From Carcharhinus longimanus (lineage: Eukaryota): DNA of 64,000 nucleotides. Positions 2,266-47,047 of the stretch are shown in pieces (positions within the stretch are counted from its first letter, which is position 1; each line of letters begins with the position of its first letter). The stretch spans positions 71,194,740 to 71,258,739 of the forward strand of contig JASCQW010000043.1 in NCBI GenBank assembly GCA_030264375.1, written 5' to 3'. The notes beneath the pieces are model-generated. The model ran no database searches and had not been told where the DNA came from. It worked only from the letters and a program-made list of their open reading frames with translations. A program made the translations under genes and the position numbers.

Positions 2266-3496
2266 CACAAAATCTATCAGTCTCAGTTTAGAAACTTTCA
2301 ACCAACCTGAAATAAATAAGAATGAAACATTTATATTTATGTAGTTTTTTTTACATCACCAGCTTTTTGAAGGTCTGAGTTCCATCCTCTGATATCACTC
2401 TTGAACTATAATTTTAAGTTCATGCCCATTTGTCACCCACTAGAAAAAAATCATTTTTTCTCCCTACTCTGATCAAAACCTTTAATCAACTAAACTCCAG
2501 CTGTAACACCACTTAACCTTCCATATTCAAGAGAATGCAAGCCTTGGTATTGCAACCTATGATCACCATTTAACCCCAGCATAATTCTTTGCTAGAGATA
2601 ATTTCCTTTGGTTCCCTAGTGGTAACCTCATCCTGTCTGATTCTTACAGCCAGAAAATCACTTAATGCCAGCTTTCCAGCCTTTTTGGTCTGGGAGCAAG
2701 CAGTTTAATGAGGACTGGCTGTTAAAATTGTCCTTCTCAGATGGGCACACTGCTTTGATATTCAGAACACCACATTTCGAAAGTACCTCATTAGCTGCAA
2801 AATGTTTCAGGAAATTATAACGATGTTAAAAAAACACCACGTAAATATAAACATTTCATATTTATTTCAGATATGAATAGGACATTTTTGAAAACATTCT
2901 GTTTGTCCTGCTTTTCCTATGACATGTGAAATAGGTATTTAATAGGATTGCCAAAATCTTGTTCTCATACTTATGCTAATACTACTCTTGAAACAGTTTT
3001 AAGAAGATGAGTAAGCATGGCTTCACGATTAATATCGTTATATTTTGCTTCCTTCTGCAAAACAACAATGTTGACATCAGAAGCTCCACAGAATGGGAGG
3101 TTCAAACTGCTCCTTCAGCTTTCTGTGGTAATAGGTTACAGTTAGCTAGAACACTTGATAACATTTGGGAGCAGCTAGAAAAATGAAATTAAACCAGATG
3201 GCTGACAGTAAGATCAGCAGTGAAGTGATTAAAGACCTTGTGTAACATTCGATGATTCTGTAAAGATAACTAATCTGGTTGTTTTAAAAGCAGCAGCAAC
3301 AACTGAAGTAAATATCTCATAACACATACCTAATTTCTCTAATCTAAAACACCAGCTCCTTTCAACATTGATAACAATCTCTCCAATATTAGCTGTACAA
3401 TGTGCAAACATCGAATGTTCCTCAACAGAGGTTCTGTAGAGAGTGCTTAAAAACAAATAATTTGGGAGGAATGGCGGGAGGACGAGGACGAGGAGT

Positions 3497-16545: not shown

Positions 16546-16958
16546 ACAAATCACTGGCTGGAAAAAGTATAGTGTAGTATTAATGTAACTGTATCTATAA
16601 TGCTTAAATACAACATTGTTTAGCATAGATATTATGAAAAAATACTCTTCTCAAGGAATTACAGTATCAAATCTGTTGTATAGACACAAATTGTAAAAAT
16701 GCTAGCTATTCGCTTGTGATGCTCTGCTGAGAGTAAGATTCTTTGCATGCACATGGCAGATCCATTAGTGAAAAAGCTACTTAAGAAATGTTTTTTGTTC
16801 AGTATCCTGGACATACAGCCAAAACCATATCACGGTCAATAAAGGTACTCAATTAAAATATGCCATAAAATGCTACAAATTCCCCATTCAGGATAATCCA
16901 GAACACAGAAACTGAGTTATCTGGGAAATGACCAAGACCCAAACGCATTATGAAATAC

Positions 16959-17082
16959 CTTAGTTCATTTTTATGAATCTGCTCCATTTTTCTTTCCAGT
17001 TTTTGTGTTTGCTTGGGAAACAACTTGATTTCACTCACATAACCCTCTGGGTGTTCATGTGGCTCATAATCACCCAACTCAG
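16959..17082 (-). CDS. FRMD3: FRMD3 coding exon (exon 6 equivalent, 124 nt)
   Basis: cttggcag|...|gtattt; (A)ELGDYEPHEHPEGYVSEIKLFPKQTQKLERKMEQIHKNEL(R); phase 1/2. Confidence 0.95.
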
Positions 17083-18529
17083 CTGCCAAGAGAGAAACAT
17101 CTTTAAAAACATGAAGGACTATTCTGCAAATGAAATAATTGGAATGTTAATTATTAAATATTTCCAAGTGAAACTTATTTTCCAAAAAAAAAGTACCATT
17201 TGTTAACTGAAAATTCATAAAACAATGAATTTCAGAATGCTGTTGAACCAATTATTTATGAACAGTCCATTTACTTCATTTTTTTTGCAAACTACACTGA
17301 CACTCCAGCAATAAACTTTACAATGCATTTATGAGCACTGTTTATAAATTCTGCTAATTACTGGAATCAATTTTATTAGGCAATTGAAAACAAATGATCT
17401 GTTGCACAAAGTTTCTAGTATCAGCTATTAAACAACCCTGAGGCAGAATTCATCCCACCAATAACACCGAAATACATGCCAAATCAATTCTCTCATGAGG
17501 GTTTCTAAATTGTAGTAGCCAGGAGAGTTAAGTTAAACTGCCTGCTATATCAAACGATAGTCATCATAGGTCTGGCCTCATACTCTGCTATTTGTTGTTT
17601 ATTTGGCAAATAATAAGAATTATTATCTAGACACAGCATATAATTTATTTCCATCTGTTCTCCATTTGATCTACAAAAGAGTCATTCAAAAGCATCCAAA
17701 AGAAATGTATAACTTTTTTATACTTCACAAAAGCACATCCCAGTCAAATTACTTCTTTTCACCCTGCTGCCATCTCACTCTATTCCCTTCTCCCACAAAT
17801 AATCATGAAATATGTTGAAACTTTGTATTAAACCATTCTATATGGCTGTACATTCCACACTCTCAGCACTTGCTGTGTAAAGAAATTCCTCCTAATTTCT
17901 TTGCTTGGTCTATTACTGGCTCTTATATCCCATTTCCACCCCCACAATTATTCTGCACACACCCACAAATGGAAACATTTTCTCCATAGCCATTCTGACA
18001 TGTGAGGTGGGCGAGGGTTATGGTTTTAAATGTCTCAAAGGCAAATTAATCAATTACAGGCTGACTGGTTCAACTCCCCAGTGTTCAAAATTTAATGATT
18101 CCTCATTAACTGCCCTAGAGGCCAGTAACCCGTTAAACTGCATGAGAATCGGAAAATCAGACAGCAACCTCAGTCACTTTCTCTTTCTCACTTGGTGAGC
18201 TCTCCTCAGAAGGAGGTGAAAATTTCAATAGGAATCTGTTAAGGGCACAACAGAAGTCTTAATCAATGAGGTTACATTTCTGTTCCACACAAAAAACCTA
18301 CCTCCACGTCTCCAACAAAACGTGCAGAGCAAAATATATTCCATAGCAATGTCTTTTTTTTGTTGTATGCAGTCAACTTAGAGGGAGCAATGCTCAAGAA
18401 AAATGTTTCACCATAAAAAATTCCAATCCGAAGAAAAATAAAGCAAGCAGCATCTACTCACCTCAATGCATAATTTCTAGTTCAGTCAGATCATACCACA
18501 GATCATTGTAAGTTTATAATCAGAGGTTT

Positions 18530-27728: not shown

Positions 27729-27923
<195 letters not shown>

Positions 27924-29659: not shown

Positions 29660-29985
29660 ATTGTCTGAAGTATCAGTGGTGATTAAATGTAAATAATTGA
29701 TGTTACAGAGCAGCGGTCAATACTGAAGAGGACTGCAATAAATTATAGGAGGACATTGGGAAACTGGCTGAATGGGCAAATAGTTAGCAAATGAAGTTCA
29801 ACATAAATAAATGTGCAGTAGTATTTTAGTTAGGAAAATAAGGGGCCAATTAATACTCGGAATGTTCTGGTCTATGTGAAGTAGAGGAACAAAAAGTTCT
29901 CAAGAATACAAAGATGATAATCATTAAAAGTTGCACCAAGGCCATGAAAATTTACAAACCAAACACTAGGTTTTATTTCTTGTCA
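29660..29985 (+). mobile_element. CR1 LINE fragment
   Basis: DIGKLAEWANS*QMKFNINKCAV motif. Confidence 0.8.
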
Positions 29986-30460
29986 ATACAAGTGTCCTCC
30001 ACACTCCCACCCACAGGCCATGTTGGAGTGAATACTGGAACAATGCCTACATCTGAAATTAGAGCTCAGAATGCAGTCCAGTGCACAAACCATGTGGGAC
30101 AAGGGTGGTGTAGGGTCTTCTCCAGCCAGCATGCAAATGAAAGACTAGGTGTAAAAGTGGCAGCCACATTGGGCTTTGAGAAGCAGCTTGAGACGATGAA
30201 TGGCCAGTGGTCCTTAAGGTACAGAAGCTAACCATCAAGTCTCTCTCTTTGATATGCAGTGAGGAGAACATCAGAAACATGAAGTCTGGTGAACTCATAT
30301 CATTCTTCTCCCTCATAGGCAGGAGAGGCGATGTCAACAGAGGCACCTGGCGTGCCAAAGNNNNNNNNNNNNNNNNNNNNNNNNNNNNNNNNNNNNNNNN
30401 NNNNNNNNNNNNNNNNNNNNNNNNNNNNNNNNNNNNNNNNNNNNNNNNNNNNNNNNNNNN

Positions 30461-30623
30461 AACGTCCTGAACGATCTTCTCAACTAGGCCGGTCTGTTGT
30501 GCTCGATAAATCACGTTACTGAAAGCCTCCGTGTAAACCGATTTACGTGGCAGCACGAAAGTCACGCCGAATCTCATGAAACATTCGTGACTGATGTGCA
30601 TAAGAGATCTCTTGGTTATCCAG
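30461..30623 (-). CDS. Partial exon of an arthropod ionotropic receptor (IR21a-like, S2 ligand-binding segment); probably foreign or contaminant sequence
   Basis: ttctcgttcag|C then WITKRSLMHISHECFMRFGVTFVLPRKSVYTEAFSNVIYRAQQTGLVEKIVQDV, running into a 100-N gap; resembles the recalled IR21a motif KRSALHxSxECF...LFPRESVY...AQQSGLIAKI; about 12 CpG in the first 140 bp. Confidence 0.75.
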
Positions 30624-32864
30624 CTGAACGAGAAGTTTTTGATAAAACGGGTCTGATGAACAGCTGTTGCCTATTCGACAGATAGAAAACTATTCAAACT
30701 TTAATGAAAATAAGTCAAGAGTTGGCAATCGGGTTGGCGACACGGTTAGAGGCAGCAGATTATATCCCGGGGCAGCATGTCAAAGACAAATTCTCCACTG
30801 CACGTCCATTGTCTGCTACTGAGACTGATGCCCTTCCGCAGTATGTCTACAGGAGGTGAACAGGGTACCTGGAAAGCACTCGAACCCTAAACAGAACCAT
30901 ATAACCACCCCTGCTGTCCCCAGTTCTGTTATCATGCTAAAAAATGTAGAAGCTTTGTAGCTTGCATCCATCAGAACACTGTGTAATACCAGTATTAATA
31001 GGCAGCATGGTGGCACAGTGGTTAGCATTGGTGCCTCACAGCGCCAGGGCCTCATTTGTGACACTGATGAAAAATCTTTAAAACTTGAGAGAACAATAAT
31101 TATACTGCATCAGAAGAGAATGCTGATTGGTTGGCAAGTGGACTCAGAGTCAAGCTGCCTGGTTTAAATTTCAAACCATGCTCAGTGGTTAACTGTCAGT
31201 CATCAACAACTGGTGCATTCTTCATGGCAACATCTCGACTGATCAAAGTTAATTTCAATGAGACTGCCTCTCTCTCTCTCTCAACTGATGAAATGGATAG
31301 GGTGTCAACTCTGGTTTAAGGATTCATCACACGATCTCCCCCTCATCAGTCAGTATCTGGCTAACACATCTATTCCAGTGATGCACTGCCTTCCCACGCC
31401 AACTGGAAAGCAAGACAACTCATTACCCAATTGGATGACTAATGGCCATTTTTTTTTAAAAAAAACACAATTTCAGTATTATTATAGCTGGCAAAAGAGA
31501 AATGTTCAAAGAAAACGACTGATCTGATAGGCAGCACGTGGAAGTGTGGAGACTGATCTTCAATTCCTGAAGACTCCAGGCCATTCCTGGAGGGTTGGCA
31601 ACCCTGGACCACAGCCAAGTTCGACAGAGTAATTTTTCAACATATGAATCACGATGTGATAGCACTGAATCAGCTCCTTTTCCTTAACGGGCCACAGGAG
31701 GAGACAGCTAATAAAACTGACAGACAATTATGGCCTGCCTTGCTGTTGGCTTCTAAGGAATCCAAAGTATTGCATCGGGGAGTGTGCTGGTCAGCACGGA
31801 AAGATGGCCACAGTTACTGGCATTTCCCATGGGGGTTACATGACCCTGGAGTTGTCACTGACTATTACCGACTTTCACACAGTTTGTCTTGGATTAGGAA
31901 TTGGAAATCAAGATTCTTTAATCAGTTGTTGCTTTGACTGGAATGGGACTGATTGCGTTCCTCACTAGAAGACCCTTCTTTTGTGCTGTGGTAACTAACT
32001 CCAGGGACAACATTTTTGCATTGACAGGATCCCCTCCGCCATCCACCCCACCACAACACAAACTCAATTTCACAGTAGGGAGCACAGTGCCTTGGATGGG
32101 AAGTCCAGTTAAGCCCTTATTAGGGCATCTTAAAGGCCCTTTCCCACCCAGTCTCAATGTTTAGGCAAGTGGATGCTGGTTGTGGATCAGAGTGCTGAAC
32201 AGCTCTCTGAGGCTGGACTTCCACCCAAGAGTAGACGGATATACCTGCTTACTGCCAATCGAAGCTCAATTGAGCACAAAATGCCAGTAGGCCAGTCAAA
32301 GTCGGCAGCATGCATTCCTCGCCAACTCGGAGGATAGTGGACGTCAAGCTTTTGNNNNNNNNNNTTTGCCATCCTGAGAATTCAGACCAAGGTATCATTT
32401 GTCCCGTTCTTGAGCCATGCAACGTTCTGAGACTGGGCGGCCTGCAGAACACCCAACCTGCAGTCAGAGGCAATATTAGACAGTGCCCATTCCCTCTGAC
32501 CCTGTCACCTCACCCACTTCAGTACAAGGATCAACATCAAAGCAATCTTGTAGAACAATGAATTTATTGTGGGGAATTCCCTGCTTTCTACCACACACAG
32601 TGATTCAGACATACCAAATTCTCAGTGAGAAACTTCCAGCTCTTTTTCCTCCCCCTTCTCATAAAAGGGAAAGTCACCATAATCCCAAATGACCAATGCT
32701 GCTCTCCTCTTTGAAGTGGTGGTGATTTAACCTGAGGATCAACACAGCTGAGGCAGCCACGGATAACCCCTCTGCATCACAAACCAGCCACCCAGCCAAC
32801 TTAGCTAGACCTTCTCATACAAGTCCTGGGAATAACTCCTGCTCTGCCCAAGACCGCAAGAAAC

Positions 32865-33252: not shown

Positions 33253-34685
33253 TAAAGTTGTTTCTGTAACTATCCACTGATTGATTGAGTGAAGGGCTTT
33301 GTCCAGTTTCAAGGTGACCAGATGCATTTTAAACGCGGGATAGTTACATTTATATATCACTTCACTGAGCCCTGTTACTTCGAAAGAAATTGCCGGCTCA
33401 GTATCCACCACCCCCCTCACTCAAATTCAGAAGCTAGCAATGCTGTGCGAGGTGTGACAAGAAGCTGTGTTACAATTTGTACTTGGCAACTTGTTCTGTG
33501 CTAATGAAAAATTCTAAAACAGTTCTTGACAATGAGGCTGCAGTACTCTGCGCTGTAAATATTCTAATAAGCCAGGCGACAGCAAGCTCGCCCTCAGTTA
33601 ACCACAGTTTCAGCCTTTGTGGCGCATCTTGGGCACATGCAATGTACAGTTAATGTGACTTTGTGGCCATTACTGGGTGGAACTTAAGTGAACAGTAATA
33701 GTTAAAAGCTAATATGAAAGAATACTGCAGTGTCAATAGGGCAGCAGAGTAGCAGCGCGGATAGTCATCATCCAGAGTTGGCTCCAAGCCCAGACATTAT
33801 TTTCAAAGACTTCCGATCTCCTTGGGGTCCCTTTCTGCCAGATAGCATTGGCAAGCTGAGAAGACAGGTCACCCACTACAAGCAGCGGACACTTTCCTGT
33901 GCCAATACTCTCCTCGCCTCCAAGGCAGCGACTCGCACAAGGCTGCGGTTCCACGGCAGCGAACCGAGAGCCCTCTCGTACAGCTCTCCACGCAGGTGTG
34001 ATGCGAGAATTGTCAGCAGGCTTTATGAGTGCAAGAGCATCACTGCCGACACCAGCCCTGCTCCCAGTCAAAAGTCTACCCACATGTCCGGGGGGGTGAA
34101 CTGTAATAAGCCAGAGTGGACTCAAAACTGGGACCTTTCAATAGCATGGCACAGTCACATCATATTGAGGTGGGAGTTGTGNNNNNNNNNNCGGTGTGTG
34201 TGGGGGTGGTGGTGGTGTTGCGGATAACTACCACGTCTGTTTCTCTTGCACCATTTACTGAGCGATATGCAGGTTTTAGTTGGATTGATTTGCCCTCCAA
34301 GCTTTGAGTGCATCATCCACATATGTCACAGCAGATGGTAAAGCAATTTCTCTCTCTCTCTTCAGGTACCGTGCCCCAAGACAGCGTTGGTGACCGTGTG
34401 TTGGTCCAGGTTCTGCTCGGCACGGAGTGTGCAGTGGTTTGCCAATGCCTTCTGCAGGTTCTGGCTGAGTAGGAGAATTTCTCGCCTGCCATCAGGCACA
34501 TTGGAAAGATTAGCGGGTTGGCGGTCACCCTATTTGGCCACATTGTGAACAGGCCTTTATTGGCCATTATAGTGGGCAAGTTGGCTACTGGCTCAGGAGA
34601 CAGGATTGGCACATACTGCCCCACAAGGCACCCCATGGTGAACATCACAGCACTCAATCTATTTGGGTGCACATGCACATACACC

Positions 34686-41071: not shown

Positions 41072-42327
41072 TAAGAAGTCTCACAACACCAGGTTAAAGT
41101 CCAACAGGTTTATGTGGTAGCACAAACCACAAGCTTTCTGAGCACTGCCCCTTTGTCAGGTGATTGGGAGTTCTGTTCACAAACAGGGCATATAAGGACA
41201 CAAATTCAATTTACAAAATAATGGTTGGAATGCAAGTCTTTACATCAAGTCTTATAGGTACAGACAATATGAATGGAAAGAGGGTTAAGCTCAGGTTAAA
41301 GAGATGTGTATTGTCTCCAGCCAGGACAATTAATGAGATTTTGCAAGCCCGGGCAAGTTGTGGGGGTTACAGATAGTGTGACATGAACCCAAGATCCCAG
41401 TTGAGGCCGTCCTCATGTGTGCTGATAACCAAGNNNNNNNNNNNNNNNNNNNNNNNNNNNNNNNNNNNNNNNNNNNNNNNNNNNNNNNNNNNNNNNNNNN
41501 NNNNNNNNNNNNNNNNNNNNNNNNNNNNNNNNNGCAAACTACCCAGCCTTCAGGAGGACAGTGACCACGACACCACACAACCCTGCCACAGCAACCTCTG
41601 CAAGACATGCCAGAGTATCAACGTGAATACCATCATCTCACATGAAAACATCATCCACTAGGTACACATACATACTCTTGCATCTCGGCCAATGTTGTCT
41701 ACCTGATACACTGCAGGAAAGGATGTCCCGAATTATGGTACATTTGGGGGCCATGCAGACGCAATGACAACAGATGAATGAACACCGCTCGACAATCGCC
41801 AGGCAAGAGTGTTCTCTTCCTGTTGGCGAACACTTCAGCGGTCACGGGCATTCAGCCTCTGATCTTCGGGTAAGCGTTCTCCAAGGAGGCCTTCAAATAC
41901 ATGACAATGCAGAATCGCTGAGCAGAAACTGATAGCCAAGTTCTGCACACATGAGGATGGCCTCAATCGGGATCTTGGGTTCATGTCACACTATCTGTAA
42001 CACTCACAACTTGCTTGGGCTAAGTCTCACTAACTGTCCTGGCTGGAGACAATACACGCCTCTTTAACCTGTGCTTAACACACTCTCCACTCACACTGTC
42101 CGTATCTTTAAGACTTGATTGCCTGTAAAGAATCGCATTCCAACCATTATTTTGTAAATTGAGTTTATGTCTATATATGCCCAGTTTGTGAACAGAACTC
42201 CCATTCACCTGATGAAGGAGCAGCACTCCAAAAGCTTGTGGCTTGTGCTACCAAATAAACCTGTTGGACTTTAACCTGAGACTTCTTACTGTGCTTACCC
42301 CAGTCCAATGCTGGCATCTCTAATTCA
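41072..42327 (+). mobile_element. Penelope-like retroelement: GIY-YIG C-terminus with an inverted pseudo-LTR and a 12-bp TSD
   Basis: SANVVYLIHCRKGCP..WYI...MNEHRSTI...PVGEHFSGHGHS...EQKLIAKF..HEDGLNRDLGFMSHY; 41072-41430 is the reverse complement of ~41935-42290; ttggtaaatgaa at 41060-41071 and 42328-42339. Confidence 0.92.
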
Positions 42328-47004: not shown

Positions 47005-47047
47005 ATTTCATTTGCTTCACGACTGACTTGTTGGGTTCCAGCCAATG
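47005..47047 (-). CDS. FRMD3: FRMD3 coding exon (exon 3 equivalent, 43 nt)
   Basis: tttcctag|CATTGG...ATGAAAT|gtaagt; HWLEPNKSVVKQMK plus 1 nt; too short to appear in the ORF track; phase 0/1. Confidence 0.93.

Follow-up and report, generated by a model that had tools for sequence, protein, structure and literature searches.

Sawfly-like IR21a DNA beside an assembly gap in a shark FRMD3 intron: probable contamination joined to host sequence at a shared 21-mer

How does part of an exon of insect type come to lie within an intron of a shark gene? The question arises from a window of 64,000 nucleotides (the whole stretch of DNA that was analysed) in an assembly of Carcharhinus longimanus, here called G000. 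The original prediction for this window described an exon of the insect ionotropic receptor IR21a inside a shark FRMD3 intron, and preferred contamination or a chimeric contig to horizontal transfer. If the insertion were true, it would represent the transfer of a non-mobile gene piece from an insect to a vertebrate. The results presented here indicate that the shark almost certainly has no insect ionotropic receptor gene and that the insertion is not a real feature of its genome.

The host intron and the encoded peptide

The host gene was correctly recognised as FRMD3. By tblastn with shark FRMD3, eight exons were located in order on the minus strand, from 52333 to 1594, and the FERM-M exon that names the gene (16958-17083, minus strand) agrees at 100% with the FRMD3 proteins of Carcharodon carcharias and Mustelus asterias. 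Sharks and rays fill the top 19 of the 120 places in the match list for this exon, at 86-100%, and bony fish follow at 68-78%. The intron that holds the foreign piece spans about 19 kb, from 47006 down to about 27840. The upstream exon (47006-47047, minus strand) matches residues 71-84 of shark FRMD3 (P0052) at 100% by tblastn and ends in a GT donor of phase 1; the coding core of the downstream exon lies at 27759-27833 (minus strand; tblastn with shark FRMD3). To the left of the gap that adjoins the piece is an old host repeat (30000-30360), for which 40 of 144 candidates in G000 were matches, 39 of them elsewhere at 68-80% identity. The right flank, 30680-31010, was found once in G000 and is unique. 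It runs into the head of a very abundant host repeat at 31001-31049 (plus strand), which we take to be a tRNA-derived shark SINE; its summed depth reaches millions in the sequencing runs X20 and X1, described below, and it also occurs at the host loci L004 and L005. No host repeat spanning the gap, from which the missing DNA could have been sized, was found: in five other copies, the left-flank repeat is not followed by sequence of the right flank. Elsewhere in the window, 33701-34200 and 41601-42000 hold 12-14 CpG per 300 bp (CpG o/e 0.57-0.69, 48-57% GC) and are likely to be young host repeats.

On the minus strand, the piece carries 54 stop-free codons (30461-30622), cut by a gap of 100 N at 30361-30460, with an AG acceptor ahead of the frame at plus-strand coordinates 30625-30624; both features are real, as originally read. 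A search of 5.8 billion proteins with the 54-residue peptide returned one hit from one candidate, IR21a of the sawfly Cephus cinctus, at 96% over the whole query (E 2e-25). The two agree at 52 of 54 residues over positions 434-487 of the Cephus protein (XP_024936966.1, XP_015587011.1), the same stretch of the S2 lobe, and differ by two substitutions, K to R and S to N. We therefore describe 30461-30623 (minus strand) as the 5' part of an IR21a coding exon, corresponding to residues 434-487 of P0003 and cut short by the gap. The adjoining 30624-30662 (minus strand) is likely to be the 3' end of an insect intron, since the protein match fades upstream of W434. With HMMER, 44 representatives were obtained within an E limit of 0.001, with 37-64% identity. 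Ten of these were looked up and eight had names, all of insect proteins; six of the eight clusters include a member called IR21a, and a Fopius representative auto-named 'glutamate receptor delta-2' is still an insect protein. The ligand-gated channel family PF00060 (Lig_chan) is present in the full-length matching proteins P0003, P0004, P0006-P0008 and P0014, whereas the 54-mer alone matched none of 24,736 Pfam families at E up to 1. In the PDB, the 54-mer found weak chance matches only (best E 0.056, to part of a cerebellin) and no significant iGluR match. As judged by protein similarity, the peptide belongs to insect IR21a and not to a vertebrate iGluR, and the identity that had been proposed from the sequence is borne out: the best match is the Cephus receptor, and no vertebrate iGluR came out ahead of it. 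In flies, IR21a is reported to mediate the sensing of cool temperatures (PMC4851551).

The full Cephus IR21a protein has Lig_chan, whereas the shark assembly holds part of one exon only. A search of G000 with the 598-aa protein scored 1 match out of 15 candidates and found no other IR21a exon, an absence limited by short contigs and gaps. By these searches, G000 appears to hold no promoter, no other exon and no complete multi-exon IR21a gene able to make a channel.

Extent of the foreign piece and its boundary with host DNA

The composition of the piece sets it apart from its surroundings. The original prediction counted about 19 CpG in some 310 bp against depleted surroundings, and we find exactly 19 in 30461-30780, with a CpG o/e of 1.20 against 0.22 for the whole window. 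Within 30461-30662 there are 14 CpG and the o/e rises to 1.37; elsewhere in the window, none of 6,086 overlapping 202-bp windows has 14 CpG or an o/e of 1.0. None of the 200-bp edges at the window's other eight gaps is CpG-rich (top o/e 0.50), and no mobile-element features were seen in the 202-bp piece. The piece sits at a contig end, with the gap on its left and host DNA contiguous on its right; the gap-free join to host sequence on that side was verified in the window sequence.

To place the boundary, the window was compared with five of 21 runs (X21, X20, X1, X6 and X3), all kept as contigs; contigs drop rare variants, and data of this kind are compatible with a rare allele or one carried by a single animal. 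In the insect-type run X21 (180 Mb of contigs), a contig of 5,797 bp at depth 45 carries the whole piece: its record positions 3074-3275 equal 30461-30662 at 202 of 202 letters, with 0 gaps and loose ends on both sides. The likely intron segment is therefore part of the DNA shared with X21. Beyond 30662 the X21 contig is unlike the window. On the other side it extends into the gap, where the 30 letters left of 30461 translate by hand to the next ten IR21a residues (488-497 of P0003), and X21 does not match the left flank of the gap. The foreign insect DNA (30461-30662, minus strand) thus measures 202 bp.

The protein similarity makes a cephid stem sawfly the likely donor. C. cinctus has a 162-Mb assembly with one Ir21a (PMC6250288), and both the assembly size and the single gene fit a cephid donor. 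The two amino-acid differences make a close cephid or a variant, and not the reference strain, the likely source. About 25 short contigs of X21 fit abundant repeats of the host (31001-31049, 31565-31608) at <95% identity, with depths of 2-28 in the rows shown; they may be traces of host DNA carried over into the insect run, or tRNA-like sequence that has nothing to do with the host.

The host-type runs place the same boundary from the opposite side. X20 has 0 differences from the window over 29700-30360, 30642-31024 and 31153-31900. It is therefore of the same species as the assembly and possibly its source, and cannot be counted as independent. X1 and X6, which stem from other studies, differ in the right flank by 9 of 338 and 18 of 344 letters, respectively; at this sequence distance (~2-5%) they appear to be relatives or other populations. 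Each of these three runs, from three studies, has a contig whose match to the window starts exactly at 30642 and is preceded on its left by 26 (X20), 168 (X1) and 166 (X6) letters that are unlike the window; the 26 loose letters of X20 fall below the 31-letter rule of the comparison tool. The orientation of the minus-strand X1 record was read from two X21 records with known loose-end lengths. The fourth host-type run, X3 (166 Mb), is shallow (depth 2-4), covers 30840 onward only and does not reach the junction; its size had suggested an insect run, but its host-type matches from 30840 onward rule this out, and the size of a run does not by itself identify a donor. The host data therefore leave the assembled path at the junction in three of the four host-type runs, the fourth being too shallow. 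The zero depth of X20, X3, X1 and X6 over 30461-30604 was given no weight by itself.

Taken from both sides, the foreign DNA ends at 30662 and the junction lies at 30642-30662. The original prediction had carried the foreign DNA on to 30780, which overshoots by 118 bp, and had looked for the junction at about 30700-31050, too far to the right. The 118 bp in question, 30663-30780, are host shark intron DNA: X21 diverges after 30662, and contigs of X20, X1 and X6 cover this segment with 0 differences in X20 and a few in X1 and X6. The earlier boundary was drawn too far right because this host segment has a locally high CpG o/e (0.91, with 5 of the 19 CpG of 30461-30780). Several of the X6 differences in the segment are C>T or G>A.

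Host-type contigs also extend into the gap with DNA that is absent from the assembly. Past 30360, the X1 contig continues for 434 letters and the X6 contig for 84. Since X1 and X6 contigs extend in from both sides, host DNA missing from the assembly belongs at 30361-30641, and the true gap is likely to be longer than 100 N (in X1, the left side gives 434 letters and the right side 168). No contig joining the left flank to the right flank, which would present the empty site in one piece, was found in the runs compared.

Origin of the join and competing explanations

The join itself is an exact overlap of 21 bp between insect and host contigs at 30642-30662. X21 matches the window up to 30662 and X20 from 30642 onward, with 0 differences each, and the 21-mer occurs once in the window. 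For any one 21-mer, the chance of occurrence in a genome of 170 Mb is about 8e-5. With the whole donor genome present, some 750,000 contig ends would yield up to about 58 matches, an upper bound that assumes uniform composition and extrapolates the contig ends from the nine gaps in the window. Because contamination is sparse, as judged by four insect-type families that gave no match in the assembly (described below), the chance of such joins lies below this bound. So long a match at the junction suggests that a program looked for it, and an exact 21-mer overlap is what a k-mer join during assembly would be expected to leave. The assemblers SPAdes and MEGAHIT have 21 as their smallest default k; our literature search on a default k of 21 found no paper.

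We propose the following course of events. Trace sawfly DNA, or reads from it, would have got into the shark sequencing data. Host coverage would break at this point of the FRMD3 intron, where the shark intron and a sawfly intron happen to share one 21-mer. The assembler, working with a k-mer graph or by overlap extension at a word length of at most 21, would then have switched from the shark path to the sawfly path and added a further 181 bases along it, until the sawfly reads ended, and scaffolding would have filled the remainder with 100 N. We give a probability of about 0.86 to the reading that the 202 bases were joined to the shark contig in silico, during assembly, and not in the animal. 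That the piece is sawfly contamination, by whichever route it was joined, is almost certain. The 202-bp piece is without function in the shark.

The join might instead have been made at the bench, if, while the library was being amplified, a sawfly fragment primed on a shark fragment through the 21 bases common to both and the chimera was then assembled. Chimeric reads are known to arise by template switching where two molecules share a short stretch, and such an event is consistent with every contig result. It would, however, need an exact 21-mer partner in a mixture of two genomes with one at trace level, where the chance of about 8e-5 applies, and a single chimeric molecule would rarely be deep enough to assemble. 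We regard a bench join as improbable, and well behind a join made in silico. A far more doubtful proposal is a real and very recent insertion, in which homology-guided repair, acting on the 21-bp match, would have placed sawfly DNA in the germ line or somatic cells of the sequenced shark. The junction in the assembly is gap-free, contigs may miss a rare or single-animal allele, and no contig crosses the empty site, all of which would be compatible with an insertion. The piece, however, has 0 differences from the genome of a living insect and no CpG decay, three host-type runs depart from the window exactly at the 21-mer, only one junction is seen, the opposite side being the 100-N gap, no mobile-element features are present, and free insect DNA occurs elsewhere in the assembly. 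We also know of no evident contact between a land-living stem borer and a shark. Even if the insertion were real, an IR fusion would not be made, because the upstream FRMD3 donor is of phase 1 while the insect exon opens in phase 2, and splicing meets a stop at the third codon (hand reading). A native shark origin, as a diverged exon of a glutamate receptor or as an open frame that arose by chance, is extremely improbable. Such a reading could draw on the lack of a Pfam family for the 54-mer and on its weak PDB matches, but it is refuted by the 96% match to Cephus IR21a, by the insect origin of all eight named representatives and by the identity of the DNA to the insect-type run X21. The early preference for contamination or a chimeric contig over transfer was well placed, given the X21 identity and the host contigs that diverge at 30642.

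Horizontal transfer into vertebrate genomes involves mostly transposons and viruses. The present case resembles such transfer in that foreign-looking DNA is contiguous with host DNA on one side, and differs from it in that no element ends or target-site duplication were seen, the donor shows no divergence and there is no second junction. A transferred piece should have both junctions in host DNA, whereas here one side is the 100-N gap and X21 is not found on the left flank. Independent samples or relatives should also carry it at this site, but X20, X1 and X6 diverge at 30642. Divergence from the donor, or drift towards host composition, is likewise lacking (0 differences; o/e 1.37 vs 0.22), bearing in mind that a very recent event would show no drift yet. 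Among the titles and opening lines of abstracts covered by our literature search, there was no report of the transfer of a non-mobile gene piece from an insect to a vertebrate. The piece is closer to known contamination. Steinegger and Salzberg 2020 (PMC7218494) describe contaminant spans at contig flanks and N gaps, the same pattern of short, near-identical foreign DNA beside Ns. Foreign DNA on short free contigs, as is found in G000, is likewise a feature of the known cases, which include the chimeric calls of FCS-GX (PMC10898089). In contrast to them, the piece in G000 is animal DNA in an animal assembly, is only 202 bp long and has a join resolved to one shared 21-mer. FCS-GX is stated to under-report chimeras for the sake of specificity (PMC10898089), and this would account for the passage of a 202-bp piece through a screen.

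Further foreign DNA in the assembly

The piece in the FRMD3 intron is accompanied by other insect DNA. A free contig of 600 bp (G000:C58703; L010:1-600) carries two exons of an insect odorant receptor with the intron between them (PF02949). Cephus cinctus was the sole hit out of five candidates for this receptor, with 68% and 88% for the two exons. By these matches, the contig appears to be a second insect contaminant in the assembly, from the same, cephid-like, kind of donor. The odorant receptor was the one family to match out of five insect-type families searched in G000; PF00379, PF01395, PF00372 and PF02958 gave no match, although these are weak blanks, as the prokaryote control was uninformative for three of them.

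When 40 short contigs were sampled by number, 16 matched host repeats, and five had a CpG o/e of at least 0.9 and no host-repeat hit, compared with none of 97 tiles of the window. These five, L011, L018, L019, L042 and L045, have a CpG o/e of 1.00-1.25 at 33-43% GC and are likely to be foreign DNA. Ten of the 43 open frames of at least 35 aa, taken from five CpG-rich short contigs that included L011, L018 and L019, were compared with Pfam and matched no family. By eye, the short contigs L016, L019 and L020 look like bony-fish DNA, and L020 contains at 349-600 a frame without a Pfam match that we take to be LINE endonuclease-like; the assembly may thus contain DNA of more than one foreign species.

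For quality control, the case is of modest use: it shows a chimera in which 202 bp of animal DNA are fused to the DNA of another animal within a chromosome-scale scaffold, in an assembly that carries foreign short contigs, one of them proven to be of insect origin. Odd non-vertebrate genes reported from G000, chiefly those beside gaps, deserve suspicion of the same cause.
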